Positions 20,708 through 45,445 of a DNA stretch of 45,746 nucleotides are shown here, piece by piece. Numbering within the stretch: the stretch's first letter is position 1; every line of letters starts with the position of its first letter. A program made the position numbers and the translations under genes. The notes under the pieces were generated by a model that worked only from the letters and a program-made list of their open reading frames with translations, had not been told where the DNA came from and did no database searches. This DNA is from Escherichia phage vB_EcoS_AKS96. Location: the sequence record NC_024789.1, one strand, 5' to 3'.

Positions 20708-21679
20708 TTAGTAGAAGTTGGGAATAAATGGAAGTGCCATTGATATGTTTGTATCAAATGGGAATTGTGCGCCAGTTTGAGTTGAGTAATTACCTATAAC
20801 AGTACCAGGGACAGCTCTAACTGAACCTCCAGACATGCAAATACCCTTGTATCGTAAGTTATTATATCCACCAGTGACTCTAGTTGTCGCTCCGCATCTA
20901 AGTATTGGGAAGAACCCACCATTCACTGACTGGTAACCATTATTAATCTGCATAAATCCACTTAGAACAAATGGCCTCCTGACACTAGAGAAAACTATCT
21001 GCCCAGCGCTGTTTGATATCGTTAAACCCGGACCAGCTACTGGAGGTGTATTATTGAAAATAACTAACTGAACGTAAGTACTTGCAGCAACATCATCAAT
21101 CCCATTGTATGTTATATCCCTACACCATATCGTACTACCATCACTTTCAAGGGATACGTTTGGGTTATCCCATTTACCAAAAGGAATGCCGCCAACTGGC
21201 AATGATGCAGAGCCATTAACCTGGATGCCACCAACCCAAGCAGCAGTCATTAATCTGGAATTGCTTGATATCGCTGTAAAGTCAGTCGAGTTCTCAACAA
21301 GGACACCGGGGCTTGATTGTGATGATGCTGGTAAAATCTCAAAGCACTGACCGCCAAACTGCAATATGCGACCATTAGCGCCGTTAAAGTTACTTAATGT
21401 AATCCTTCCAACCCCATCATTAACCTTCGAGAACCCATTCATGTAATAAACTTCTGGTATAACATCATATGCATCAACATAAACAGCCTGGGTTGGCAGG
21501 CAGAATGCTGTTGAGCCAGGGGTCATAGTCAAACCGAAATCCCATGATGATGCTGGTGAGCTTAACCCGATAGTGTTTATTGAACCAGTCACGGCTGGAA
21601 CTCTCAAGCCAGCTGTGATTTCCATTGCTGGCCTTCCGTCATTCAAATCTATCAAGATACCTTGAGGCATTATTTCCAC
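20708..21679 (-). CDS. putative tail fibre / receptor-binding protein
   Basis: 323 aa Gly/Ser/Asn-rich, convergent with J. Confidence 0.4.
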
Positions 21680-21915
21680 TCCTTTGAGCCGTGATCTGCA
21701 ACTGAGCCGCCGTAGCCTCCACCAACCTTTGGCTCAATACCAGCATAACGAATATCAACCTCTCCAGCTGGAACAACTACGCCACCCTTCCATTTAGCTA
21801 CGCATACACCAGAGGCCTGAGTTGCACACCATCCGTCAGGTCGCGGGCCAGAAGAACAACCTACTGTCATGATTACTGCTGCTGCGATGATTGCTGATTT
21901 GATGAAGTTAGTCAT
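21670..21915 (-). CDS. small lipoprotein, Cor-like superinfection exclusion candidate
   Basis: 81 aa from ATG 21915 (aagga RBS); signal peptide plus lipobox VGCSS. Confidence 0.5.
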
Positions 21916-21955
21916 TTTGTATTCCTTAGTAAGTATGTTTCGTTTCGATGGAGTA

Positions 21956-22001
21956 ACTATAGCAAAGGCTTCTGCTGGAGTCTTTAGCAAATCGTGCTAT
22001 T
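21956..22001 (-). promoter_or_regulatory. conserved box-plus-minus-10 cassette (copy n)
   Basis: minus strand AATAGCACGATTTGCTAAA, 23 bp, TATAGT. Confidence 0.5.
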
Positions 22002-22232
22002 TGATATACGCGTAACCGATGTAACTCGATGTATACAATCCCATACGCGGAAAATTGTATACGCTTTTTACGCGAAGATACGCATTATTTACACTATAGA
22101 ATCCTTATATAATAAGGGTTTAGAGTAATTATTATTATTACTATATTTGTTTGTATATAGTGTAACTACTCTCTATAGCTATGTTGGTGTGTTTTTCTAA
22201 AAGACTATGTTTGATTTCCTGTTAAGGAGGAA

Positions 22233-22379
22233 ATGCATATAGATATAGATAGGGTGCAAAAGTGGTGGATACATTGGTTACAAGAGTTACACTCAGTATC
22301 CATGCGGCGTACAGAGTCGCAAGACGTATTCAGGTGCGTTTTACGTAGATATACAGATAGCACGAATAATCAAAACTGA
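22233..22379 (+). CDS. small ORF (48 aa) upstream of Rha-like gene
   Basis: strong RBS aaggagg 4 nt before ATG; ends in a degenerate box copy (22357-22376). Confidence 0.3.
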   Translation: MHIDIDRVQKWWIHWLQELHSVSMRRTESQDVFRCVLRRYTDSTNNQN

Positions 22380-22410
22380 TGCTTCCTGATTGGTTATAGT
22401 GCACTCACCG

Positions 22411-22430
22411 GCAGCAGTGGTGCTGCTTTT
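22411..22430 (+). terminator. hairpin with short T-tract (attenuator-like)
   Basis: gcagca-gtgg-tgctgc tttt. Confidence 0.35.
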
Positions 22431-22491
22431 GATGCAAAAAAATGCACCACAAAATCCGGGAGTGAAAATAATTCAACCCCAAAAACTAGAG

Positions 22492-23561: not shown

Positions 23562-24530
23562 ATGAGCTTCAAGGTTTACACTAGCGACGAGTTAACCAAC
23601 GAAGCCTACCACAAGGAGTCAGACCATGTGTCTGGCTCTGGTCTGGCTCACATCTTCTCAACTTGCCCCGCTGCTTATAAGTTTGCAGAGCATGATGATA
23701 GCAATAAGGCGTTAAAGTTCGGTACATTAGCCCACACGGTTATTCTTGAAAACTATGTATTCGATGCGACTTACTATCGCCAGCCAGCGCAAGAAGAGTT
23801 TGAGGATCTGATTACTAGCAAGACTGCTTTGGCAACTCGGTTGAAGTCGATGGGTATTGCTGGAACATCTGGTAAGGATTATCCAGAATTAATGGAGATT
23901 CTGGCGCTGAGCGGTGAATCACTTAACGTATGGTGGGATATTCAGCGCTCTAGCGAGGTTAAAGCGAACGGTCGCGAGATTGTATCAGCTAAAGACTTTG
24001 ACACAGTACATGCGATGCGAGAGGTGCTGTGCGGCATTCCTGCATACAATGCGATAGTGAACAGTAAAACCGCTCAGCGAGAGTTATCAATCTTCGGTGA
24101 GATTAACGAGTGCGGCGTTAAGGTTCGTCTTGACCATGTCGATGTCGTTGATGATGTAGTTTATATCCGTGACTACAAGACGACTAGCGACGCATCTCCA
24201 TCTGGATTTGGGAGATTGGCCTTCAAGCATGGTTACTTGCTAAAAATGGCGCTTCAGCATGATTTGTTTGTTCGCGCCTTTAATGAGAAGCGTCGAGTTG
24301 TTGTTCAGCTTCTTTGCCAGGAAAAGAAAAGCCCATTCCTTCCAATGTGCTACACGATAACAAAAGAGCACTTAAAGGTTGGTAGATTGCAATACATGAG
24401 CGCCCTATCCACATACAAGCAATGCAAGAAACTTGATATTTGGCCTGGTTACGGATTTGGCGAAACAGAGATGGAACTGCAAGTTCCTGAGTATGAGATG
24501 AAGAAGTACGAAGATAGCACGAATAGCTAA
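23562..24530 (+). CDS. recombination-associated exonuclease (PD-(D/E)XK type)
   Basis: 322 aa; D-x(n)-IRDYKT motif; sits upstream of Erf and SSB. Confidence 0.5.
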   Translation: MSFKVYTSDELTNEAYHKESDHVSGSGLAHIFSTCPAAYKFAEHDDSNKALKFGTLAHTVILENYVFDATYYRQPAQEEFEDLITSKTALATRLKSMGIAGTSGKDYPELMEILALSGESLNVWWDIQRSSEVKANGREIVSAKDFDTVHAMREVLCGIPAYNAIVNSKTAQRELSIFGEINECGVKVRLDHVDVVDDVVYIRDYKTTSDASPSGFGRLAFKHGYLLKMALQHDLFVRAFNEKRRVVVQLLCQEKKSPFLPMCYTITKEHLKVGRLQYMSALSTYKQCKKLDIWPGYGFGETEMELQVPEYEMKKYEDSTNS

Positions 24531-24557
24531 AACGGTATTAAATCGATGGGGTATAGT
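24514..24557 (+). promoter_or_regulatory. conserved box-plus-minus-10 cassette (copy a)
   Basis: ATAGCACGAATAGCTAAA, 22 bp, TATAGT; box contains stop of upstream gene. Confidence 0.5.
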
Positions 24558-24586
24558 TACCTCATCGACAACAAAGAGAGATAGAA

Positions 24587-25234
24587 ATGAAGACTTCAGA
24601 GAGTAACAAAACAGTTTTACAGGCACTATTTAAAGCTCGCACAGGATTTGCGAAGGCAGCAAGAGACAAGCAGAACAGTCACCTAAAGAATAGATACGCA
24701 ACACTTGATTCCATGCTGGAGGCTGTAATCCCAGCACTTGATGATAACGACTTAATGATTATGCAGAGCATGTTAGAAACATCAACTGCTGACAATCTTA
24801 ACGTAGAGACGACTCTCTATCACGTTTCTGGCGAGTGGGTTAGCTTCTTCATGATTATGCCAATCGTTAAGAAAGACCCGCAAGGAGTAGGATCTGCATT
24901 TACATACGCTCGGCGTTACTCACTAGCGGCGGCTTTGGGAATTAGTCAGTCTGACGATGATGCGCAGATGGCAGTTAAGAGCGTCAAGGACTGGAAGCGC
25001 GATATTGAGAAGGCAGAAACTCGAGAAGAGCTTATCGAAATCTACAAATCATGCAAATCACAAGCTGACACGGCAACGTGGGGTATAGTAGAGAAAGCGA
25101 TAATAGATAAACAAGCAGAGATCAAAATGGCTTCCGCAAGTGGCTTCAACCCAGCTAAGCCAAAGGAAGTCGCTAAAAAAGTTGCAAACGCAACTAATGA
25201 AGTAGTAGAATCACAATCAATCGAGCAGTTCTAA
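24587..25234 (+). CDS. erf: Erf-family single-strand annealing protein
   Basis: KQNSHLKNRYATLDSMLEAV block typical of ERF family. Confidence 0.75.
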   Translation: MKTSESNKTVLQALFKARTGFAKAARDKQNSHLKNRYATLDSMLEAVIPALDDNDLMIMQSMLETSTADNLNVETTLYHVSGEWVSFFMIMPIVKKDPQGVGSAFTYARRYSLAAALGISQSDDDAQMAVKSVKDWKRDIEKAETREELIEIYKSCKSQADTATWGIVEKAIIDKQAEIKMASASGFNPAKPKEVAKKVANATNEVVESQSIEQF

Positions 25235-28531: not shown

Positions 28532-29455
28532 CTATGAATGCTTATCTATCAGATCTTGCGGGTTATATAACCTTCTTTCAAGCCCCATCTTGAAATTGCC
28601 ACCTTTAGGTATTACGACTTTTAGACCTCTATCATCAGCAACATAAAGCGACTCCTTTTCATCAGCTAAGCAAGCTATCCTGCACTCTTTATTCCTGAGT
28701 TCATAAGCAACCATTTCTAAGTTGTGGTGAGTTAGGCAGTCGTAAGTTGTCCTTTTTGTGCATGCCGATACATGTAGTGCGTTAATCCAGCCAACAGTGA
28801 GGTAGATAGCGCCATCACTACATTTACTTACCGGAACAACCGAGCCGCGAGTGTAGTCTTTTGCGAGATATGACTCATTACCCTCTTCATCTATAAACTT
28901 TACGTTACAAGGCTCATCTGATAAACCATCCTCGTAAACCATAAAGCATTGCTCGGCTATAATTTCTTCTCCAGACCCCTTTATTCCTATTTTGTATTCC
29001 CGTTCAGTAATAATTGCTTCAAATCTCGTAAGCTGTGTCATTTCTACAGACTTGGTGCGAGAGATTACCTTCTCGATTGATTCAATGGATGCCTGAGCGC
29101 CAAAGTTATATCTCTGAACTCGGCTCGCTGCTTTGTTTGCCTTCACTATGATTTCGACGGGAGTCAAATTAAGCCAGTCGCCAAGTAAATTTATAGCTTC
29201 CGCAAATCTAAGGCCGGAACATTTCATAACCCATCCTATTCCTGAGTCACTGCCGCACTTAGAGCAAACTGCGGCCCCATTACCTTTTTCGCTTCCTATT
29301 TCGTCTGTAAACCTGAATCTGTCAGTACCAAAGCAATAAGGGCACGGCCCGTGCTTCTTGCTAAGGTGTCTATCATTCCAACCAAGCTCCTTTGCATAAA
29401 ATGATTTCCACAATCCAGCCATTTTAGGTATTACTTCATTCTTGTCGTAATTCAT
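28532..29455 (-). CDS. DNA primase (zinc-ribbon type)
   Basis: HGPCPYCFGTDRFRF...CSKCG resembles the zinc-ribbon of phage primases. Confidence 0.6.
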   Translation of the reverse strand: MNYDKNEVIPKMAGLWKSFYAKELGWNDRHLSKKHGPCPYCFGTDRFRFTDEIGSEKGNGAAVCSKCGSDSGIGWVMKCSGLRFAEAINLLGDWLNLTPVEIIVKANKAASRVQRYNFGAQASIESIEKVISRTKSVEMTQLTRFEAIITEREYKIGIKGSGEEIIAEQCFMVYEDGLSDEPCNVKFIDEEGNESYLAKDYTRGSVVPVSKCSDGAIYLTVGWINALHVSACTKRTTYDCLTHHNLEMVAYELRNKECRIACLADEKESLYVADDRGLKVVIPKGGNFKMGLERRLYNPQDLIDKHS

Positions 29456-29507: not shown

Positions 29508-29981
29508 TTACTCTTTAGCTTTTCGTGCTTCTTCTCTTTCTTTCTTAACCTTTCGCCATGATTTACGCTGCGGCTTGGTTGCTAACTCAGCTTCTGTAAC
29601 AACTCGAAGCATCTGACGCTTCTTGCATCGCAGTGTTAGAGGCTTGCCGTTACCGTCGAACTGTAAATCAGGTCGGCAGAATGTAGCCCTGAACCCCTCG
29701 CCAGTTCGCTTATATCGATTATGCGCAAGCTGTGCGCCGCGAGCTGAAATCATTCCCCGCTTACACCATTCTTCTACAGCCTGGCGCGTAACCTTTAGCT
29801 GCTTAGCTAGATTGGCCTTGCTGCCGTAGAAGTCCAATACAATCTCAAGGCGCGCCCTTAATCCTGCTCTCACTTCATCCTTTAGTACATAGTAACCTGA
29901 TGGACGCTTACGCGGCTTCTTGTCTTCTGTGCGAATTGTTCCGTTGTTACCATTAAGAGTACGCTTGTCAATTGAATCCAT
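29508..29981 (-). CDS. basic DNA-binding protein with HTH-like segment
   Basis: 157 aa, Lys/Arg-rich; LAKQLKVTRQAVEEWCKRG helix-turn-helix-like. Confidence 0.35.
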   Translation of the reverse strand: MDSIDKRTLNGNNGTIRTEDKKPRKRPSGYYVLKDEVRAGLRARLEIVLDFYGSKANLAKQLKVTRQAVEEWCKRGMISARGAQLAHNRYKRTGEGFRATFCRPDLQFDGNGKPLTLRCKKRQMLRVVTEAELATKPQRKSWRKVKKEREEARKAKE

Positions 29982-29992
29982 TTTCTCACCTC

Positions 29993-30036
29993 AATAGCAC
30001 TTTTTGTTAAACATTGGTTTAGATGGCTGTTATTAT
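29993..30036 (+). promoter_or_regulatory. conserved box-plus-minus-10 cassette (copy b)
   Basis: AATAGCACTTTTTGTTAAA, 21 bp, TATTAT. Confidence 0.5.
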
Positions 30037-30073: not shown

Positions 30074-32017
30074 ATGGAAAACCGATTGAAAACAATACAA
30101 AAACAGATTGAAGAATTGGGCGAAGATAAGATTAAAGAGATTCAAACTAAATTCACCTCTTCTAACGGTATGGTTCCGTATAGCTATCAGTGTGTTATGT
30201 ACAATGAGATTGCAAAGCGCATTAGTCGCTATGAGCATCCATTTATCGCAATGGCTTCAGTTTCTGCTGGTAAGACTCTGGTTTTTGGTATGGTTGCTAA
30301 GCGTTGCTCTGAGCTTGGCTTGCCTATGCTTGTTCTTGCTCGTCAGGCAGAGCTGGTTAGCCAGAATGCTTCTGAGATTTCTGATTACGGGGTTCCTAAC
30401 TCCATTTATTGCTCTGGGCTTGGAATAAAATCATCTTATTTCCCTGTGGTGGTTGGCTCTGAGGGCACAGTAGTTGGCGGGCTTAAGAAGTCACTTGGCG
30501 ATTTCTGTCCTGCGGTAGTTGCTATTGATGAGTGTCACCATATTGATGACCAGGACATAGCGGAGGCAATTGATAACAATGAGACTGCGCAACAGGCATC
30601 AGATAAGGGGCGTAGCCAGTATACGGTCATCATCCTGACTTTAATGGAGCGCTGCCGTGCTAAGTATGGCAAGAATCTTCGTATCTTTGGACTGACTGGT
30701 TCTCCTTTCCGTGGAACTACGCCAATAGTTGTTGAAAACAAAAAGGAGTTGGGATTTTGGCGTGAGACGGTCACAAATATCGATACAAACTACCTGGTCG
30801 AGTTCGGTTCCGTGGTTCCGACAAACTTTGGTGCTACTGATGGCGTTGGTTACGACCTGTCAGAGTTTGATGCATCATCTGAAGATGGTGTTCAGGATTA
30901 CACTAAAGCCCAGCTTGAAGCCATGGATAAAAAGATCCAGGCATCTGGAACAATGACAGCGGAGATAATGAAGAAAGTATGGCTTGCCGCGAAAAACAGG
31001 AATGGAGTTCTGGTAACATGCGCAGGTGAGCGCCATTGCCACGAAGCCGCAAGTTACCTTCCTGAAGGTGAAAAGTTCTGCATTATAACTGGAAAGACTG
31101 GCGAGAAGCAGCGCAAGGAGTTGCTTGATAAGTGCTTTAGCGGGGAGATTAAATATTGCTTTCAGGTTCAGGCGCTAACCACTGGCGTAAATGTGCCTAC
31201 ATGGGATACAAGCGTTATTCTGCGTAAGATTGGTAGCCTTACGCTCCTGGTTCAGCTACTTGGTCGAGGAATGCGTAAGCTTAAGAAGCTCCATGAAGAT
31301 AAAGGAATGGTCAAGAATGACCATTTGGTACTGGACTTCGCAGGAACGATGGACTCTATGGCATCATTGTACTTCAATCCAATTCTTGAGCAGGCTCAAT
31401 ATCAGCTACGAAAGAGTAATGGCAAGGAGACTAAGCAGTGTCCAGTATGCGGAACAGAGAACAGCTTCTTTGCTCGACGTTGCATGAATATTGATGAGAA
31501 TAATAATCGCTGCGAATATTTCTGGGTTAGTCGCACATGTGAAGACCAGAAAGACCCACGAACCGGAAAGGTTATCGTTAAAGGCTGCGGAGTTCAGAAT
31601 GACGTTGCAGCTAAGATTTGTAGGGGTTGCGATTGCACTTTGCTTGATCCAAATCTCAACTTAAGCGGCAAACATTACCGCAAGAACGACTGGTTTGATG
31701 TTGTTGACTTTAAGGTTGGGCTAACAAAGAACCAATCAGGAATCATCTACAACTACATCCTTGATGATGGCATGGGTGGGACATTCAAAGCTCATGAGGT
31801 TTTCTTTGTAGAGTCTGACCATCGAGTATGTAAAACGCTCTGGTTGAACAATGGAATTAAAGGTCACGTAGTCGACATGAACGCTAAGCGATATATGGCT
31901 GCATATCGCAATGCTCGCAAGATTATGGAGTATGCGCAGTACATCCATGCTCCTAAGAGGGTAACTCACCGCAAGACCGCTAAAGGTGGCGATAATATTG
32001 CTAATAAGGAGTTCTAA
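30074..32017 (+). CDS. SF2 DEAD/DEAH-type helicase with C-terminal zinc ribbon
   Basis: Walker A SAGKT, Walker B DECHH, motif VI QLLGRGMR, CPVCG...C zinc ribbon; start set at ATG 30074 downstream of cassette. Confidence 0.8.
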   Translation: MENRLKTIQKQIEELGEDKIKEIQTKFTSSNGMVPYSYQCVMYNEIAKRISRYEHPFIAMASVSAGKTLVFGMVAKRCSELGLPMLVLARQAELVSQNASEISDYGVPNSIYCSGLGIKSSYFPVVVGSEGTVVGGLKKSLGDFCPAVVAIDECHHIDDQDIAEAIDNNETAQQASDKGRSQYTVIILTLMERCRAKYGKNLRIFGLTGSPFRGTTPIVVENKKELGFWRETVTNIDTNYLVEFGSVVPTNFGATDGVGYDLSEFDASSEDGVQDYTKAQLEAMDKKIQASGTMTAEIMKKVWLAAKNRNGVLVTCAGERHCHEAASYLPEGEKFCIITGKTGEKQRKELLDKCFSGEIKYCFQVQALTTGVNVPTWDTSVILRKIGSLTLLVQLLGRGMRKLKKLHEDKGMVKNDHLVLDFAGTMDSMASLYFNPILEQAQYQLRKSNGKETKQCPVCGTENSFFARRCMNIDENNNRCEYFWVSRTCEDQKDPRTGKVIVKGCGVQNDVAAKICRGCDCTLLDPNLNLSGKHYRKNDWFDVVDFKVGLTKNQSGIIYNYILDDGMGGTFKAHEVFFVESDHRVCKTLWLNNGIKGHVVDMNAKRYMAAYRNARKIMEYAQYIHAPKRVTHRKTAKGGDNIANKEF

Positions 32018-32406
32018 TGGTTAAGGTTTTTCACGACAAAACAAGCACGGACAAGGCTAAGGAGGTTGTTCACCAAATAAATTCAATAGCTTGGGTTCGC
32101 CACAACCATCCAGAGATATTTGCTTTTCACGTGAAGAATGAAGGTCTCAAGTCTATCGGCACAGCAATGAAGGACAAGCAGGAGGGAGTAATTAAGGGTG
32201 TATCAGATATTCTACTGATTGGACCAAATGGCTTTGCCGCAATAGAGCTTAAGCGAGCAATAAAATCAGATAGCAAGGTTTCAAAGGAGCAAAAGGAGTT
32301 CCTGGAAAAGGTATCAGAAACAGGAGGTTACGCGGCAATCTGTTATGGGTTTGAAATGTTTAAGTTGGCAATTACAGATTATCTATCAAATAGCACGAAT
32401 TGCTAA
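32017..32406 (+). CDS. VRR-NUC domain nuclease
   Basis: GVSDILLIGPNGFAAIELKRA...EQKEFLEKVSETGGYAAICYG. Confidence 0.55.
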   Translation: MVKVFHDKTSTDKAKEVVHQINSIAWVRHNHPEIFAFHVKNEGLKSIGTAMKDKQEGVIKGVSDILLIGPNGFAAIELKRAIKSDSKVSKEQKEFLEKVSETGGYAAICYGFEMFKLAITDYLSNSTNC

Positions 32407-32433
32407 AGAGATTTCGCAAGGATGCGATATAGT
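32389..32433 (+). promoter_or_regulatory. conserved box-plus-minus-10 cassette (copy c)
   Basis: AATAGCACGAATTGCTAAA, 22 bp, TATAGT; contains stop TAA of 32017-32406. Confidence 0.55.
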
Positions 32434-32464
32434 TACTTCATCGAAACGAAGAGAGAGAAACAAA

Positions 32465-32877: not shown

Positions 32878-33074
32878 TTACTGCGACTTGCGTAATGACG
32901 AACGGCTCATTCACCCTGCTCAATGAGTATGAATTCAAACTTGACCCGATTAATGACCAGGTTGAAATAGTTAGCGATGACGGATTTGCATGGAAGTTAC
33001 ATAATGAATTTGATGGGTACTACGGGTGTAATGATGCGAAAGGTAAGCATGTAAGTTTTCTTGTTTATGAGTAA
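32874..33074 (+). CDS. hypothetical protein
   Basis: 66 aa from ATG 32874 (ggagg RBS, ATGA overlap). Confidence 0.4.
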   Translation: MITATCVMTNGSFTLLNEYEFKLDPINDQVEIVSDDGFAWKLHNEFDGYYGCNDAKGKHVSFLVYE

Positions 33075-33118
33075 ATAGCACTTTTTGTTAAAACTAAAAT
33101 ACAAGGATGGATTATATT
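33074..33118 (+). promoter_or_regulatory. conserved box-plus-minus-10 cassette (copy d)
   Basis: AATAGCACTTTTTGTTAAA, 22 bp, TATATT. Confidence 0.5.
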
Positions 33119-33270
33119 AATTACATCAGCAAATGAGAGGGTTAAGAGATGAAAATTGTAGACAAAGAGATGTTCGAGATTGCGCAGTCTTTCGCAAATG
33201 ACGCAGTTAAGACTGGATCTGAATATTGCTGGATGTGCGCTCGAGAATATTTAAAAATGGCTTACGGCCT

Positions 33271-33510: not shown

Positions 33511-33764
33511 ATTTACCTGGTCTAGATTTTGCTGAGAGTAAGTATCAGGTTGTGTTTTTTGGTGAGAAGCCTTATCGGAAGATTCCTTTCTCTGAGTGGA
33601 TTCCTCCGGACTACCTCGATGTACTGGTGCAAATTGAGATTGGTAAAGCTGAGTTGATGTACTATTCGCCAGGTTGCAATATGATGATGCCTAGTGAGTA
33701 TTCACCAGCAATTTCTGCTCTAGAAACTGAGTTTCTTGATTACTGGCTAAAAGAAGTAAAATAG
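33507..33764 (+). CDS. hypothetical protein
   Basis: 85 aa, ATGA overlap, stop is the TAG of the next box. Confidence 0.4.
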   Translation: MNLPGLDFAESKYQVVFFGEKPYRKIPFSEWIPPDYLDVLVQIEIGKAELMYYSPGCNMMMPSEYSPAISALETEFLDYWLKEVK

Positions 33765-33803
33765 CACTTTTTGTTAAAAACATCGCCACGGATGGCGTAT
33801 AGT
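33760..33803 (+). promoter_or_regulatory. conserved box-plus-minus-10 cassette (copy e)
   Basis: AATAGCACTTTTTGTTAAA, 21 bp, TATAGT. Confidence 0.5.
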
Positions 33804-33831
33804 GTGTTCATCGAAACGAGAGACGCTTCAG

Positions 33832-35116: not shown

Positions 35117-35608
35117 ATGAATTGGAATGATTTTCTCGAATATAGAGATGGAAAGCTTTACTGGACAGATCCACACTCAACAAAATTTAAGCCAGGGGAT
35201 GAGGCTGGATGTAGGCATCATAGGGGTTATCATTATATAAGGAGATATAACACCACGATGTCAAGGCATAGGATAGTATGGACAATGTTTAATGGAGAGA
35301 TACCGGAAGGCATGGAGATTGATCACATAGACCATGACGTTGAGAATGATCGGATTGAAAACCTAAGAATGGTTACAAGGAGGCAGAACAATCAAAACAA
35401 AAAGCTAGATGAAAGAAATACTAGCGGACATGTTGGGGTTAGTTGGAACAAGAAGACAAAAAAATGGAGAGCAATGATAGGTATAAAGGGTAATGACGGG
35501 AAGCGGAAAACGGTATATGTTTATTATGGTGACTCTTTCGACGACGCGGTATTGGCAAGGAAGAAAGCTGAAGCTGAATACTCATTTCATGAAAATCACG
35601 GAAAATAG
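35117..35608 (+). CDS. HNH homing endonuclease with AP2-like domain (paralog of 562-1077)
   Basis: EIDHIDHDVENDRIENLRMVTRRQNNQN; GHVGVSWNKKTKKWRAMIGIKG. Confidence 0.75.
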   Translation: MNWNDFLEYRDGKLYWTDPHSTKFKPGDEAGCRHHRGYHYIRRYNTTMSRHRIVWTMFNGEIPEGMEIDHIDHDVENDRIENLRMVTRRQNNQNKKLDERNTSGHVGVSWNKKTKKWRAMIGIKGNDGKRKTVYVYYGDSFDDAVLARKKAEAEYSFHENHGK

Positions 35609-35648
35609 CACTAATTGCTAAAACACAAATCAAAAGATGGGGTATATT
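35604..35648 (+). promoter_or_regulatory. conserved box-plus-minus-10 cassette (copy g)
   Basis: AATAGCACTAATTGCTAAA, 22 bp, TATATT. Confidence 0.5.
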
Positions 35649-35681
35649 TACTCCATCAAAACAAAACGAGAGGATACAAAG

Positions 35682-37440: not shown

Positions 37441-37456
37441 TGGCTCCTTTCTTTTA
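37425..37456. terminator. bidirectional terminator between convergent operons
   Basis: aggagcc-taat-ggctcct flanked by A-run and T-run. Confidence 0.55.
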
Positions 37457-37789
37457 TGCGAACAATTGGTCGTCCGTCATTTCTTTTATGGTCATCATCT
37501 CATTAGTGTACTTATCGCTCTCACCCCCAAGGCATCTGAAGCTAAATTCGAAAGGTCGCTTCGTGCTTCCTTTGCTCCAGTAACTGCCATTAACTCCATC
37601 GATGTAACCTTCAGTCATGCATCTTGCCAGAAACTCCTTTGACGCAGATGATGCAAAGTAACGCGCATTAACTCCAGCTGCCTTAGCCATTCTTTCACAT
37701 TCTTTGTGGCGGTAAATGAATACCGCCAGGTGCTGCCTGTTAAACTTTTCGTAGCTCTCGCAGAACTTGAACACATCAAGGATGAACAT
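37454..37789 (-). CDS. hypothetical protein
   Basis: 111-aa ORF adjacent to the 527-aa gene. Confidence 0.4.
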   Translation of the reverse strand: MFILDVFKFCESYEKFNRQHLAVFIYRHKECERMAKAAGVNARYFASSASKEFLARCMTEGYIDGVNGSYWSKGSTKRPFEFSFRCLGGESDKYTNEMMTIKEMTDDQLFA

Positions 37790-37793
37790 TTAA

Positions 37794-39377
37794 TTACCCC
37801 AACAGCCGTGGATTGATATATACCTTGTCACCAATCAGGCAGGTATAGTTTTTATCATCAAGCATCGGCAGTAAGTGGTCTTTAATTTTAGCCATAACAC
37901 CAGCCTGTGACTCGAAAGGTCGAACCTTACGCGCAGCTTCATAAAGTGAACGCAAACCCACAACTCCTTTACTGTTCTTGCCTTGCTTGATAAGGATATC
38001 AATTAACTTGTTCATCTCAGCGTTATCGCCAGCATGACCAGCTGCGTTAGCTGAGGATAAGTAAGTCTTACTAAGTTCTCCAAACATCAACAAAGCCTCT
38101 TGCATGGTTTCCAGTTCAATCTCCCTGGACTTCTGCGGACTACCGCCATTTGGGTTAAACCAGTTACGGATAGTGTGAAGAACTGCAGCAATGCGAATTA
38201 CCTGTTTATCCATTTTACCTAACGCGCCGCGCAGCATTGTGTGTGAATACTTACCGCCATCTGCAAGGTGTGGCTCCATTTCCTGTCGAGCACGGTTAAG
38301 GTGCTTCATTGCTGAGTTACTAATAGTCAACTTCACATCTTGCTCACTCATAATTTCATGAACAAGACGGAAGTAATCAGCCTTCAACGCTCCGTCAATC
38401 GGCTCATATGTTGACTCGCCATTATCATCGACGAAAACACGCTCACCAAGGAATGACTTTTCACGCACAAGCAAGAAACGTTCGGATACACCAATACCGC
38501 GAGCACCAGCATTCATGATTGCGACTATTGTTTCATCCTGCGCAATTACAGAAATACACCCCATAGCAATAAAGCTCATGTTGTTCTCTGCGTTCGCACG
38601 CGCGATAGATACGTTACCAGCATCCCAGGCCTTAAGTACCAGTTCGCTGTTTGTTTTCTTTGTTCCATCACCATAGGTCATGCCCAGCAGTGAGTTGACG
38701 CTCGTCGCCTCATCCGAGATGACAGCGAAGCTACCCTGACGATGGTTAATGCGTGCCAGACCTTCAGGAGTAGTATCAGATACAGGGAATACGATGTCGC
38801 AAAGTTTCTCGAGCTTATCTTCCAGCTCCTCCTTCTCCTCAAACAAACCAGCCATCTCAGAAGGCGACTTCTCCTGCTTCATTTCTTTAGCCAGAGCCGA
38901 CAGCTTGGCCATAATCTTTTTACGGTCACGCTTACGCAGATCGTTTAGTCGCTCAGTCTCTGCAATCATTGGAGCCAGAGACAGCGAGTTAATGGCAGAT
39001 TTACCAGTTGATGGAGGCTGGCTGGTCACTACATACAGTGATGTTGGTTGTTGAGTTCCGTGATACTCAACCGTAAAGCGACCTAACATAGCTGCCGAGA
39101 TGCAACCAAGGAAGTGCATATAAGCAGATGATTCAGGAAACTGAACAGAACGAGCAATGTTGCTTGATAGTTTGCCAACTACATCATAGTCGTTACCAAG
39201 CGAGATAACAGGATACTTGTCGCCAGTAGAATCAATCTCAACCGGAGCTTTCCAGAATGATGCGCTCTGGCGATAACCGTTCGCATTAATAGCAACACGT
39301 AAAGGAGGTAACCCATCCTGAGCGGCAACAGCCATTACTTGTTCAACAGTCAATTTGTCATCATTAAAATCAAACAT
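37794..39377 (-). CDS. large hypothetical protein with possible deviant P-loop; paralog of 42634-43176
   Basis: 527 aa from MFDFNDDKL; termini match the 180-aa paralog; candidate Walker A SQPPSTGKS and Walker B FAVISDE. Confidence 0.5.
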   Translation of the reverse strand: MFDFNDDKLTVEQVMAVAAQDGLPPLRVAINANGYRQSASFWKAPVEIDSTGDKYPVISLGNDYDVVGKLSSNIARSVQFPESSAYMHFLGCISAAMLGRFTVEYHGTQQPTSLYVVTSQPPSTGKSAINSLSLAPMIAETERLNDLRKRDRKKIMAKLSALAKEMKQEKSPSEMAGLFEEKEELEDKLEKLCDIVFPVSDTTPEGLARINHRQGSFAVISDEATSVNSLLGMTYGDGTKKTNSELVLKAWDAGNVSIARANAENNMSFIAMGCISVIAQDETIVAIMNAGARGIGVSERFLLVREKSFLGERVFVDDNGESTYEPIDGALKADYFRLVHEIMSEQDVKLTISNSAMKHLNRARQEMEPHLADGGKYSHTMLRGALGKMDKQVIRIAAVLHTIRNWFNPNGGSPQKSREIELETMQEALLMFGELSKTYLSSANAAGHAGDNAEMNKLIDILIKQGKNSKGVVGLRSLYEAARKVRPFESQAGVMAKIKDHLLPMLDDKNYTCLIGDKVYINPRLLG

Positions 39378-39417
39378 TATCATCTCTCTCTAAATGCCCC
39401 CGAAGGGGCTTGACTAT

Positions 39418-39635: not shown

Positions 39636-39681
39636 AATATATCAATTTTTGTTGTTAAGTTCTTTAGCAAAAAGTGCTATT
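39636..39681 (-). promoter_or_regulatory. conserved box-plus-minus-10 cassette (copy j)
   Basis: minus strand AATAGCACTTTTTGCTAAA, 23 bp, TATATT. Confidence 0.5.
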
Positions 39682-39796
39682 AAAGACCAACCAGACATTT
39701 GCCAACTACAACAGCGATTGCGCCCATGAAGCCAAAGAAACCAAACTTAATTACTTGTTCCATTACCGCATCAACTGCTTTAGAGATGTTTTTCAT
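39680..39796 (-). CDS. hypothetical small hydrophobic protein
   Basis: 38 aa from ATG 39796 (aaggtg RBS), hydrophobic C-terminus FGFFGFMGAIAVVV. Confidence 0.3.
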   Translation of the reverse strand: MKNISKAVDAVMEQVIKFGFFGFMGAIAVVVGKCLVGL

Positions 39797-39833: not shown

Positions 39834-39879
39834 AATATACCCGCCGAAGCGGGTACTGTCATTAGCAAAAAGTGCTATT
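39834..39879 (-). promoter_or_regulatory. conserved box-plus-minus-10 cassette (copy k)
   Basis: minus strand AATAGCACTTTTTGCTAA, 23 bp, TATATT. Confidence 0.45.
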
Positions 39880-40084
39880 TTTTTAAGTGCCCTGGCGCAT
39901 AGCATTTTCCATCCTTCTTATGCAAAACCCACCCAGCATATTTAAGTTGCCTTGCACAATCAGAAAAGTTCTCGCCCGCAGCGTCCGTATAGTGTGGCAT
40001 AAAATAAGAACCATCATCATTTGACTCAGTTGAGCACTTCTTACAGTCGCAATAAACAGCGATGGAATAACCTGAAACAATCAT
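39875..40084 (-). CDS. Cys-rich hypothetical protein
   Basis: 69 aa with CDCKKC and further Cys; ggagg RBS; ATGA coupling to upstream gene. Confidence 0.4.
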   Translation of the reverse strand: MIVSGYSIAVYCDCKKCSTESNDDGSYFMPHYTDAAGENFSDCARQLKYAGWVLHKKDGKCYAPGHLKK

Positions 40085-40796: not shown

Positions 40797-40841
40797 AATA
40801 TACAATAAAAGCCCCGAAGGGCTTTAGCAATTCGTGCTATT
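40797..40841 (-). promoter_or_regulatory. conserved box-plus-minus-10 cassette (copy l)
   Basis: minus strand AATAGCACGAATTGCTAAA, 22 bp, TATATT. Confidence 0.5.
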
Positions 40842-40989
40842 TCTTTGCTGCTTTTGCAATTGCCTTCTGGACGATGTTGAAGCTCTCAATCAAATCTTCT
40901 TTGAAGTAGTCACCAACAGGCCAACCCTTACCGCTGTACTTGGCTATGGTTTCTAGATCGTAATAGTTCAAGTCAGATGGCTTTAGCAT
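40837..40989 (-). CDS. hypothetical small protein
   Basis: 50-aa ORF, start adjacent to upstream stop, own stop is the TAG of box l. Confidence 0.3.
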   Translation of the reverse strand: MLKPSDLNYYDLETIAKYSGKGWPVGDYFKEDLIESFNIVQKAIAKAAKK

Positions 40990-41229: not shown

Positions 41230-41444
41230 GCTACCACCTCAATTTCTTCATTACTAACAACAAACTGTTCACCTTGAAAGATTGCAAGAGTACCATCAAC
41301 ATATACATGATCCTTTAAACTCATCATGTAGAAGCCTTCAATCTCGTAAACTTCCACCTCCTCACCAATCTGATAGCCAAGTTCGGCAAGGCTCATTGAA
41401 TCTTCGTCGTACCTAATTTCGTTGTTGATAATAATCGCTTTCAT
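41226..41444 (-). CDS. hypothetical acidic protein
   Basis: 72 aa, first gene after cassette copy m. Confidence 0.4.
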   Translation of the reverse strand: MKAIIINNEIRYDEDSMSLAELGYQIGEEVEVYEIEGFYMMSLKDHVYVDGTLAIFQGEQFVVSNEEIEVVA

Positions 41445-41472
41445 GTTTCTTCTCCTCTCTGTTGATTAGCAA

Positions 41473-41518
41473 ACTATAGCCAGTCATGGTGGATTTGTCT
41501 TTAGCAAAAAGTGCTATT
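41473..41518 (-). promoter_or_regulatory. conserved box-plus-minus-10 cassette (copy m)
   Basis: minus strand AATAGCACTTTTTGCTAAA, 23 bp, TATAGT. Confidence 0.5.
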
Positions 41519-41529
41519 CGTCAGATTTA

Positions 41530-41650
41530 TGGATTGTTGCAGGCATTGCAATGATTCGCAGTACTATTGCATCTATAGAAATATTGCATCTGTCGCAATG
41601 ATTTTCTGGACTGTTGCGAATTTAGCAATGATTGATGGATTGATGGAATG
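41530..41650. repeat. iteron-like short direct repeats
   Basis: GCAATGATT x3 (41548, 41595, 41625), ATTGCATCT x2 (41567, 41583), TGGAYTGTTGC x2, tandem ATTGATGG x2. Confidence 0.6.
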
Positions 41651-41820
41651 AAAGGAAGGGCGTATCAACTAGTTGGTTGGTTTTAGCTTTCACAAGGAGC
41701 TTTCCTTTATGTACGCGTTATGGCTTGTTCAACCGTGTAGAGAAATTGCCATATTTACGCCATCCACGCCAGTTTACGCGCTGGTTACAAAATAAATCCC
41801 TTATATAACAACCCTTTAGA

Positions 41821-41843
41821 TTTATTATTATTATTATTATTAT
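41821..41843. repeat. (TTA)n microsatellite in AT-rich intergenic region
   Basis: about 7 TTA units; shorter counterpart at 22129-22140. Confidence 0.7.
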
Positions 41844-42060
41844 ATATGTTATTCCGTAACCATGATTATCTGAGATATTGGTGATATTTTTTTGATATTG
41901 CGCGGCGCATAAAGATTTAGATAAAGAGATAGGGATGCAAGCGGGGTGGCGAAAATGGCTTAACAGACCATAACGGCAATAACAGCCTTGATACGACTAG
42001 CGTCAGCATGTAACAATTTAGCATAACGTGCGATTACCGAGTTGAACGTGTAAATAACGC

Positions 42061-42088
42061 TTGCGACATTCACCAATCATGGTAAGAT
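42061..42088 (+). promoter_or_regulatory. candidate sigma70-type promoter for plus operon 42119 onward
   Basis: TTGCGA, 16 bp, TAAGAT, then leader aaacgagagga. Confidence 0.4.
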
Positions 42089-42118
42089 GCTCTCACACCA
42101 AACGAGAGGAGTAGTAAA

Positions 42119-42634
42119 ATGAGTAATACAATTCGTGAAGCAAACCCGACACTTGGCGACCTGGTGCGGCACCTTGTTAAGATGGCTCTTAATTCAGAGG
42201 ATGGAAGCGTAACAGTTCCCGTTAAGTTGCTTTACAAGAATCTTTACGGAGAAATTGATAACGACTATGTAGCAGCTGACTTTAGACCTGGCGGCAAATA
42301 TTCACTTCCAAAGCTTAAGGCTTCCTATGTTTCAAATACAGCCAGCAGAATGCAGGAAGTTAAAGACGCAGATAAGCGCGCAAGGTTCTCTTGTGGAGAG
42401 ATGGAGTATAATGGTGATGAGCATTATTGCGTAAAAATCACAATGGTCAACGGTGCTGTTAAGAATGGAACCCGAGCTAAGACAAACAGTCAATTAGAGG
42501 AGAAAGCGGTAAGCGAGTTTAAAGCTAGGCTACTTAAGCTTTCCCCCAGCGTAGCAGGAATGAGTGGAGATGAACTGAAGGGTGCGGTAGCTATGATTAA
42601 CGCATATCAGGAAATGATTAAGGAGACTAAATAA
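42119..42634 (+). CDS. hypothetical protein
   Basis: 171 aa, first gene of operon, gagagga RBS. Confidence 0.45.
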   Translation: MSNTIREANPTLGDLVRHLVKMALNSEDGSVTVPVKLLYKNLYGEIDNDYVAADFRPGGKYSLPKLKASYVSNTASRMQEVKDADKRARFSCGEMEYNGDEHYCVKITMVNGAVKNGTRAKTNSQLEEKAVSEFKARLLKLSPSVAGMSGDELKGAVAMINAYQEMIKETK

Positions 42635-43176
42635 TGTTTGATTTCAACGAGGATAAACTTACTCATGAGCAGGTGTTAGCGGTAGCAGCGGCAGACGATC
42701 TGCCCCCATTACGAGTATCAATAATTGCAAATGGTTATCGACAATCTGCAAATATATGGCCTGAGCTGGATAAGGTCAAAGATTTTGAACTAGACAGTGG
42801 AACTTTAAAGATTACTGAAATACTCATCAAGCAAGGGATGAACTCCAAAGGCGTTGTTGGTCTCAGGTCACTATATGAGGCGGCACGCAAAGTTAAGCCA
42901 TTCGATGGGCGAAATGGAGTAATGGAGGAGATTAAGGAAGTCATCATTCCAAATCTGGATAAGCTTGGCTATGCATGCCTAATTGGCGATAAGATTTATA
43001 TCAACCCTAGATTGCTGGATGGCAAGCAGGACTGGACTTACAAGGTCAAGCCACTGGAAGATGATTTCAACATCGAGGATTGTGAGAAGGTTGTCGACGA
43101 GATTATTGTCAAGGCTATCGATGAGCAGATCGAGAAGCTCAAGCGAAAGAAGAAATATCTCCTGACCGGTAAATAG
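42634..43176 (+). CDS. hypothetical protein, short paralog of 37794-39377
   Basis: 180 aa; N-terminus MFDFNEDKLTHEQVLAVAAADDLPPLRV and internal KGVVGLRSLYEAARKV...CLIGDKIYINPRLL match the large protein. Confidence 0.5.
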   Translation: MFDFNEDKLTHEQVLAVAAADDLPPLRVSIIANGYRQSANIWPELDKVKDFELDSGTLKITEILIKQGMNSKGVVGLRSLYEAARKVKPFDGRNGVMEEIKEVIIPNLDKLGYACLIGDKIYINPRLLDGKQDWTYKVKPLEDDFNIEDCEKVVDEIIVKAIDEQIEKLKRKKKYLLTGK

Positions 43177-43216
43177 CACGAATTGCTAAACAATAAATCG
43201 GGTAGTCAGCTATGAT
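43172..43216 (+). promoter_or_regulatory. conserved box-plus-minus-10 cassette (copy h)
   Basis: AATAGCACGAATTGCTAAA, 22 bp, TATGAT; contains stop TAG of 42634-43176. Confidence 0.5.
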
Positions 43217-43725: not shown

Positions 43726-44025
43726 ATGAGTAAGTACGAAAAAGAGATTATTGGCCTGGACGGCACCAAGACTACGGTTGATGTATATCGCGTCATCGCA
43801 GCATTTGGCGTAACGGACCCGGCACTACAGCATGCCATCAAAAAGGTACTGTGCAGCGGCATTCGAACACGACATAAGGATTACCCTACCGACATCAATG
43901 AGGCCATTGTATCGCTTCAGAAGGCCATAGAATTCCATGATCAAAGGGGTGCGCATGTCCAGGAACTTATAGACAAGTATCGCAACGGACCTAAACATTA
44001 TCTTGATAGCTGGAGCAACAAATAG
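43726..44025 (+). CDS. hypothetical protein
   Basis: 99 aa, stop is the TAG of box i. Confidence 0.4.
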   Translation: MSKYEKEIIGLDGTKTTVDVYRVIAAFGVTDPALQHAIKKVLCSGIRTRHKDYPTDINEAIVSLQKAIEFHDQRGAHVQELIDKYRNGPKHYLDSWSNK

Positions 44026-44065
44026 CACAAATTGCTAAACATCCATCGCAAGGATGCGTTACCAT
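44021..44065 (+). promoter_or_regulatory. conserved box-plus-minus-10 cassette (copy i)
   Basis: AATAGCACAAATTGCTAAA, 22 bp, TACCAT. Confidence 0.45.
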
Positions 44066-44097
44066 TACTTTATCGAAATGAGACGAGGAAAGATTAA

Positions 44098-45369: not shown

Positions 45370-45445
45370 GTTCTGCTGGCGTAACAGGATAACGCAGAGA
45401 CCTCCTAAGTCTCAGTTACTGGTTCGAGTCCAGTGCGGAACACCA
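45370..45445 (+). tRNA. tRNA-Arg (anticodon CCU), CCA encoded
   Basis: hand-folded cloverleaf: 7-bp acceptor stem with one G-U, 4-bp D stem, 5-bp anticodon stem with loop CTCCTAA, T-loop TTCGAGT, 3' ACCA. Confidence 0.7.

Follow-up and report, generated by a model that had tools for sequence, protein, structure and literature searches.

A conserved pair of paralogous AT-rich intergenic elements in T1-like phages, possibly a duplicated early control module

Phage early operons can be headed by tandem sigma-70 promoters with AT-rich upstream regions, as in the early promoters of T5 and T7, and P4 carries two cis regions, ori and crr, with short iterons in common to which a primase-helicase binds through its winged-helix C-terminal domain. 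We know of no mapping of either the replication origin or the early transcription signals of T1, a classical T phage. Here we describe a paralogous pair of elements of ~140 base pairs (bp) each, copy A and copy B, in Escherichia phage vB_EcoS_AKS96 (NC_024789.1). The whole 45,746-nucleotide (nt) stretch is called the window, and regions A and B are the intergenic gaps that hold the two copies. BLAST of both regions against phage records identifies the phage as a T1-like siphophage of the Drexlerviridae (Rogunavirus). Among described systems, SPP1 has two origins 13 kb apart, each made up of direct repeats plus an AT-rich unwinding element (PMC6316719), and T4 oriF and oriG each place a promoter and an unwinding element within ~100 bp (PMC3016281). 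In T1-like phages, a 2024 re-annotation of TLS reported 21-nt repeats, of unknown function, as the only repeats, with no origin-like repeats, only three sigma-70 promoters (Table S1) and no RNA polymerase or sigma gene; it holds no description of the present element (PMC11447400).

Alignment identifies copies A and B as genuine paralogues, as the sequence-only reading of this DNA had proposed. Ungapped, 22060-22144 and 41756-41840 are identical at 61 of 85 positions, against 42 of 85 for the next best match in the window on either strand. A gapped local alignment of 22060-22196 with 41756-41891 scores 41, far above 300 dinucleotide shuffles (mean 12.4, standard deviation 1.6, maximum 21). Together, the genome-wide scan and the shuffles rule out a chance likeness of AT-rich DNA. 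The core motif CCTTATATAA-N3 followed by GGG or CCC and then TTTAGA occurs at 22103-22124 and 41799-41820, its sole matches in the window even with up to three mismatches, and runs of at least four TTA occur in the genome only at 22129-22140 and 41822-41842. The pentamer TACGC clusters in both regions, at 22007, 22044, 22060, 22069 and 22079 in A and at 41712, 41756 and 41775 in B, where CACGC at 41765 adds a variant. At least five TACGC in 80 nt would arise by chance with a probability of ~2e-8 per 80-nt window and ~1e-5 genome-wide, and the phased pattern ACGC-N5/6-ACGC-N5/7-ACGC has two sites in the genome, both of them the elements, where 0.01 is expected per shuffled genome. The core motif, the TTA runs and the clustered pentamers (five in A, three in B) all lie within 1-2 nt of where the sequence-only reading had put them. 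Paralogy extends further than that reading had it. A second colinear block, 22237-22285 against 41915-41967, was equalled in 0 of 300 shuffles, and a leftward 21-nt repeat stands at both left edges; three blocks are thus colinear between the regions: the 21-nt repeat promoter element pointing left, then the element proper, then the block downstream of it.

Both copies share one anatomy. On the plus strand, 5' to 3', four pentamers (TACGC, (T/C)ACGC, TACGC and TACA(C/A)) are followed by 12 nt, TATATAA, N2-AA-N3-TTTAGA, a (TTA)4-7 run and TATAT, and A-type copies close with the right border TGTATAT-N2-TGTAAC. The pentamer array lies at 22060..22094 (+) in copy A (TACGC at 22060, 22069 and 22079, TACAC at 22090) and at 41756..41790 (+) in copy B (TACGC at 41756, CACGC at 41765, TACGC at 41775, TACAA at 41786), with the extra TACGC at 41712. 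Its periods of 9, 10 and 11 bp place all four pentamers on the same helix face. The core motif reads CCTTATATAATAAGGGTTTAGA at 22103..22124 (+) and CCTTATATAACAACCCTTTAGA at 41799..41820 (+), and the AT-rich cores, at 22105..22164 and 41792..41851, include (TTA)4 and (TTA)7, respectively. The right border of copy A, TGTATATAGTGTAAC at 22151..22166 (+), is kept in A-type copies including that of T1 (TTGTATATCGTGTAAC). Upstream of the array, 22007..22061 (+) in copy A holds TACGC at 22007 and 22044, GTAAC at 22012 and 22021, an 8-bp inverted repeat (TATACAAT/ATTGTATA, 22032-22039 / 22054-22061) and ACGCGGAAAA, which is CCGCGGAAA in relatives. The second paralogous block occupies 22237..22285 (+) in A and 41915..41967 (+) in B, where it begins ATTTAGATAAAGAGATAGGGATGCAAGCGGGGTGG; GTTACA at 22277, starting inside the A block, and at 22286, just past it, keep a 10-bp period. 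Just 3' of each AT core the plus strand is G+T-rich, at 22183-22196 (TTGGTGTGTTTTT) and 41876-41891 (TTGGTGATATTTTTTT), as it is in TLS at 28905-28945 and 290-320 (GGTTTGTGGTGGTTGTGTGTTTTG); in part they are Chi-like (xxTGGTGx).

No DNA in the genome melts more easily than the two elements. By nearest-neighbour duplex stability in 40-, 60- and 100-bp windows, they are the two least stable segments genome-wide (z ~5; third best at most 3.8), the core of copy A ranking second least stable at 60 bp and least stable at 100 bp and that of copy B least stable at 40 and 60 bp. The same physical criterion was checked in seven genomes, representing four subfamilies plus the genus Webervirus. T1, TLS, Rtp, 12397V, Msk and the Klebsiella Webervirus mtp24 (51% G+C) each have their two least stable segments at the same gene-order positions, one 5' of exoVIII and the other ~215 bp from record position 1, 5' of the left operon. 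Low stability is kept despite diverged sequence, as (TA)n in T1 and as other variants in TLS and mtp24.

Such instability, retained at fixed positions through sequence turnover, raises the possibility that the elements are replication origins, or one origin and one cis replication or fork-arrest site. We consider this possible but doubtful. The phased repeats would bind a phage initiator and the AT-rich core would serve as the DNA unwinding element, either as iterons plus unwinding element, in the manner of SPP1 oriL and oriR, or as a promoter plus downstream unwinding element, in the manner of T4 oriF and oriG. Several features beyond the exceptionally unstable AT-rich segment speak for it: phased direct repeats adjoin the AT core with region-confined lineage motifs alongside, canonical promoters exist separately, precedents are on record (PMC6316719; PMC3016281), and the TLS authors found no origin in the TLS genome (PMC11447400), nor is there another origin candidate. 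Four phased direct repeats, with a phased triplet unique to the two sites, lie beside the putative unwinding element, yet at 5 nt they are shorter than typical iterons. Two origins would be the less common case for a 46-kb phage, no DnaA boxes or GATC clusters are found around the cores, and the AT core keeps one specific sequence unchanged in two subfamilies, a sign of sequence-specific recognition more than of mere meltability.

Comparison with the SPP1 and T4 origins cuts both ways. Like SPP1 oriL/oriR, the copies are two similarly built regions kilobases apart, there in a ~44-kb genome, with repeats beside an AT-rich unwinding element, and in base composition AT-rich islands are what stands out most in that genome too (PMC6316719). 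SPP1, a Bacillus phage with pac-type headful packaging, is likewise a lytic siphophage using host polymerase and its own helicase, exonuclease, annealase and SSB. Its repeats, however, are bound by gp38, of which no homologue turned up here, no search having been aimed at one, its oriL is intragenic whereas the present elements are intergenic, there is no sequence similarity, and its origin activity has been demonstrated, whereas the elements here would be putative origins. T4 oriF and oriG, which the copies may resemble, are ~100-bp modules in which an activator box near -30 and a -10 of sigma-70 type are followed directly 3' by an AT-rich unwinding element (PMC3016281). In copy A, TTACA lies 13-14 bp 5' of TATAAT, recalling the -30 MotA-box geometry, and the (TTA)n core follows. 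Unlike the T4 arrangement, copy B and the Braunvirinae have an imperfect -10, and oriF and oriG share little sequence, whereas A and B are clear paralogues.

The pair is conserved across the family. Eighteen copies, A and B types together, from ten Rogunavirinae and Braunvirinae phages align nearly gap-free over ~150 nt, with invariant columns ACG./ACGC/TACgC/gtTACA, atC-N2-TATATA-N2-AA-N3-TTTA and ATTATTATTATTA. A 111-nt core query finds 258 places in 147 phage records, mostly two per record. This alignment and this copy number indicate that the pair is ancient and maintained, and the conservation of both copies argues for function. Alignment with related phages had been put forward as a check on the likeness of the two regions, and there as in the shuffles the likeness held. 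In T1, TLS, Rtp, 12397V, Msk and mtp24, the two islands within each genome are paralogous to each other. Both copies always lie 5' of, and are oriented with, a plus-strand operon. In mtp24 the block of left and structural genes runs opposite to its usual direction with respect to exoVIII, and each island is still oriented to its own operon. Such strict orientation is expected of promoters and would be unneeded for origins.

Sequence motifs within the islands differ by lineage and are confined to them. TGTAACA occurs six times inside the two regions of T1 and never outside, as does CCGCGGA in Rtp (6 inside, 0 outside); GTGAACA/GTTCAC in TLS and GTAAGAT in mtp24 are likewise confined, and both TLS islands carry ACAAAAAGAACAAA-N9-TATATAAT. 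The lineage-specific motifs flank the AT core in both orientations. Their confinement to both regions points to a dedicated binding protein. In the distant Vibrio phage pYD38-A, which encodes a DUF3987 helicase of 36% identity, only one such island occurs, at 24540-24880. It contains CCTTATATA, (ATT)n and TAACCC in four phased copies, and it occupies the divergent gap immediately 5' of the helicase operon. That position directly 5' of the DUF3987 helicase operon would suit an origin. Scans of IMG/VR gave few T1-like contigs and many chance pattern matches.

We tentatively favour, at slightly under an even chance, a module for early-transcription control, or a promoter module, that is present in duplicate and to which a protein of the phage binds. 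In this model each copy would be a ~140-bp cis-acting module on which proteins assemble and the DNA opens. The four TTAC(G/A)C-like pentamers on one helix face would probably be bound by a phage-encoded, lineage-specific DNA-binding protein, and the array adjoins TATATAA-TTTAG-(TTA)n-TATAT, the most easily melted segment, with its modest sigma-70-like promoter. The module would most likely act in early transcription of both plus-strand operons, that for recombination at A and the left one at B. In tandem with a canonical gene-proximal promoter, each element would serve as an auxiliary upstream promoter or control platform under the control of a factor. We infer factor binding because the repeats are phased and region-exclusive; use by RNA polymerase and the direction of action are likewise putative. 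A high prior for such elements, the operon orientation, the universal weak promoter and the invariant core sequence favour transcription control. This leaves the sequence-only reading of the regions as related control regions partly supported: a plus-strand operon does lie 3' of each, as it had claimed, and its label "early" is an assumption from T1 biology.

A weak sigma-70 promoter candidate recurs throughout the aligned copies. TTTAGA-17-TATATT at 22119..22147 (+) in copy A and TTTAGA-17-TATTAT at 41815..41843 (+) in copy B each match 9 of 12 hexamer positions and are the sole pair with canonical spacing in their element. TTTA(G/C)N-17/18-TAT(A/T)(T/A)T is present in 18/18 aligned copies and ranks close to the 99.99th percentile by a rough sigma-70 weight matrix, whose scores should be taken as indicative only. 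Promoters are annotated here, independently, in the AHP42 and CEB_EC3a records. The AHP42 annotation, 'TTGACA(N14)TATAAT', corresponds to TTTACA-N14-TATAAT at 22088..22113 (+). The literature searched yielded no transcriptome or origin mapping of any T1-like or Drexlerviridae phage.

Stronger promoters lie downstream. By the same rough matrix, the best sigma-70 promoter in each intergenic region stands beside the first gene, 70-270 bp 3' of the AT core: at 30319 and 449 in T1, 29110 and 523 in TLS, 28200 and 477 in Rtp, and 42061 in region B of the window. The two TLS sites coincide exactly with P51 and P01 of the re-annotation. The window site, TTGCGA-16-TAAGAT with a TG extension at 42061..42088 (+), lies ~240 bp 3' of core B and is the positional equivalent of TLS P01 and of T1 TTGACA-17-AACACT. 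With the best promoters separate and 70-270 bp 3', the element is not simply "the" promoter of its operon. T5- and T7-type early promoters are likewise AT-rich and stand at the head of presumed early operons, with a weak upstream and a canonical downstream promoter; here, in contrast, the hexamers match at only 9 of 12 positions, an invariant (ATT)4 "spacer" not required of promoters lies between them, and the T5/T7 type is not known to have phased upstream repeats or region-exclusive motifs.

Several of these observations weigh against a transcriptional role. The candidate promoter is weak, promoter-like sites are no commoner in the region than in shuffles, and the TTTAGA-17 pair has no positional equivalent in T1 or TLS. 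The promoter annotated in AHP42 is rejected, having a 14-bp spacer outside the sigma-70 range and a -10 that is not conserved; copy B (TATAAC) and the Braunvirinae (TATATC) lack the T at -7. Much stronger canonical promoters follow at variable distance, leaving the operons without need of the element as a promoter, and the 70-270 bp range likewise rejects a fixed-geometry upstream activator site for those promoters. The sole open reading frame (ORF) directly 3' of copy A is probably not a gene. Finally, the anatomy would suit an origin about as well as it suits a regulatory site. The transcription and origin readings are compatible, because T4-type origins are promoters.

A candidate binding protein is encoded in the same genome. 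The DUF3987 helicase (529 amino acids, 37794-39383, minus strand) has a 180-amino-acid relative at 42634-43176 (+), the second gene of the B operon, which joins the first ~53 residues of the helicase (68% identity) to its last ~70 (70%) without the ATPase core. The two loci share an inverted DNA repeat, 37912-38009 / 42808-42905. The AlphaFold model of the short protein has a confidence (pLDDT) of 81.8. For the C-terminal domain in common, which in the helicase spans about residues 440-529, the predicted fold is a winged helix most like the Orc/Cdc6 winged-helix domains. A sequence search of both proteins against the PDB returned nothing useful. By tblastn, the mini paralogue gives a second match in Rogunavirinae and two out of the three Braunvirinae genomes; Rtp, T1, TLS and Webervirus show no such second match. 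Rogunavirinae and Braunvirinae, which carry the TACGC/GTTACA motifs, have the same putative recognition stretch, and it differs in T1, TLS and mtp24, which carry other motifs. This pattern may reflect co-variation, and is also compatible with plain phylogeny; it is no more than a lead for binding.

The initiator-like domain predicted in the helicase bears on the origin reading, for which the helicase, through the C-terminal winged helix it has in common with the 180-amino-acid early protein, is the initiator candidate. It is conceivable, though we think it rather improbable, that the elements are the origins of T1-like phages, or an origin and a second cis site, paired across the Drexlerviridae and bound at their phased TTAC(G/A)C-type repeats by the helicase winged helix, with the 180-amino-acid protein as competitor or regulator. 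Against this, the link from winged helix to repeats is one that we infer, and the P4 alpha origin-binding domain is not among the top 60 structural matches. The TLS motif GTTCAC resembles the P4 iteron, perhaps by coincidence. T1-like phages encode a P4-alpha-like primase separately.

Host factors account poorly for the elements. DnaA and IHF had both been suggested as candidates by the sequence-only reading. In six genomes, the stretch from -350 to +400 nt around either core is free of DnaA boxes (TTWTNCACA), which speaks against the former, and no GATC (Dam) cluster lies near any core. IHF fares better in relatives: the exact consensus stands in the core of both copies of 12397V and Msk and of Rtp A (TATCAACCTTTTA or TATCAACCATTTA), with 3-4 such matches per genome. 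In the window, the IHF-like stretch of copy B (TAACAACCCTTTA) has one mismatch to the consensus WATCAANNNNTTR, which is expected after an A/T tract, and that of copy A (TAATAAGGGTTTA) has two, which include the conserved C; an unrelated exact match lies at 41663. The consensus is absent from the T1 and TLS cores. With exact matches in Braunvirinae copies only, IHF is rejected as a general explanation. These observations also bear on an architectural role, in which IHF, Fis or H-NS would bend or loop DNA for pac packaging at copy B or for promoter looping and the elements would themselves be neither promoters nor origins. We regard this as unlikely. Copy B does lie ~215 bp from position 1, the terminal-repeat start, in the T1, TLS and Rtp records, and the exact Braunvirinae sites fit. 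Yet the consensus is degraded in the window and missing from TLS and T1, copy A is nowhere near pac, and host proteins would leave the phased, lineage-specific repeats unexplained.

An RNA or peptide product explains the elements poorly. The conserved parts would then belong to a pair of small RNAs or leader peptides, an explanation that is largely refuted and that we hold very improbable. In its favour, a 48-codon ORF (22233-22379, phrog_30596, annotated in AHP42) follows copy A and holds the second paralogous block, a short, partly similar ORF follows copy B, and a GC hairpin and T run follow Rtp copy B. The ORF after copy A, however, has a premature stop in AHS24, spans 34-58 codons in relatives with variable ends, and has mostly non-synonymous changes. 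It is unlikely to be a real gene behind the conservation and probably not a gene at all; the sequence changes across 22233-22379 indicate conservation of the DNA itself. Rfam matches only a tRNA at 45370 in the window, which rejects a known RNA family for the element, and the RNA 3' of ten cores folds no more stably than shuffled sequence does (z -0.15 to +2.1), which rejects a structured small RNA or terminator 3' of the core.

Another repeated regulatory element accompanies the pair in the same genomes. The 21-nt repeats of T1-like phages (PMC11447400) have one copy to the left of each region; they differ from the present element in sequence and in number, with ~15-20 copies per genome before most operons against exactly two. 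A leftward T1-like 21-nt repeat, aaATAGCACnnnTTGnTAAAA with a TATAGT box, flanks copy A at 21955..22002 (-), outside the element proper, and a leftward 21-nt repeat promoter element flanks copy B at 41472..41519 (-). The 21-nt consensus is not found inside the element; repeats adjoin it at 21982-22002, 22355-22376 and 41499-41519. The window holds ~15 copies. Plus-strand repeats lie at 22355-22410, 24512-24573, 29993-30011, 32388-32449, 33073-33128, 33760-33819, 35603-35664, 43167-43199 and 44020-44081, and minus-strand repeats at 21955-22002, 39659-39682, 39857-39880, 40822-40842 and 41472-41519. In the window the repeat contains the inverted repeat TAGCA-N5-TGCTA, and ~20 nt past it stand GATGG-N2-TATAGTTAC and CATCGAAAC. 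Between TTGCTA and the TATAGT box the distance is 22 nt, more than a -35 allows, which suggests promoters governed by an activator or repressor of the phage that acts as a dimer. The rightward repeat-type promoter has a hairpin immediately past its -10, GGCAGCA-NTGGT-GCTGC at 22406-22425 in the stretch 22406-22431, which is annotated as a terminator in AHP42; its stem is conserved and its T run is not, so a structure in the 5' untranslated region is more likely than a terminator.

Regions A and B are each a large intergenic gap between divergent gene blocks, 5' of a plus-strand operon. Plus-strand structural genes run up to 20677. Two minus-strand genes ending at 21914 lie left of region A, one of them (21670-21915) a Pfam Phage_lipoprotein match, and the Rha-like, exoVIII, Erf and SSB genes follow 3' on the plus strand. 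Left of region B, a minus-strand block that includes the DUF3987 helicase runs from 41444 back to 37454, and 3' of it the plus-strand left operon begins with a DUF7174 protein and continues into the terminase genes. The genome also encodes a Cro-like regulator (29508-29981) and a 111-amino-acid protein (37454-37789). Region A (21900-22420) is 99.8% identical to vB_EcoS_AHP42 and region B (41440-42120) 94.5% identical to C119, phiKP26 and AHP24 by BLAST. The genome is mosaic: AHP42 matches just the first 41% of region B, at 84%, and the remainder is closest to C119, phiKP26 and AHP24. In region B only, 41520-41650 carries three exact GCAATGATT repeats (41548, 41595, 41625) amid TTGCA/TTGCG motifs. 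This stretch takes in position 1 of the Rtp record and repeats similar to those at T1 position 1, the annotated terminal-repeat start, and is likely the pac or terminal-repeat boundary region. The Rfam match noted above, at 45370-45445, is a tRNA-Arg with anticodon CCT, as in the AHP and AKS phages.

The pair gives T1-like phages compact, recognisable landmarks. Single promoter annotations in GenBank records were already known; against the literature searched, the paralogous pair, its family-wide conservation, the two melting minima and the phased repeat array are new. The element class is a known one whatever the function, being either a promoter/operator module or a repeat-plus-unwinding-element origin. 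Position, copy number, melting and internal spacing are kept in every Drexlerviridae genome examined, which offers two precise ~140-bp targets for 5'-end, origin and binding mapping, together with a candidate binding protein. If the elements are promoters, they would define the immediate-early control regions. If they are origins, they would supply a missing piece of biology for a large family of therapeutic and industrial-contaminant phages.

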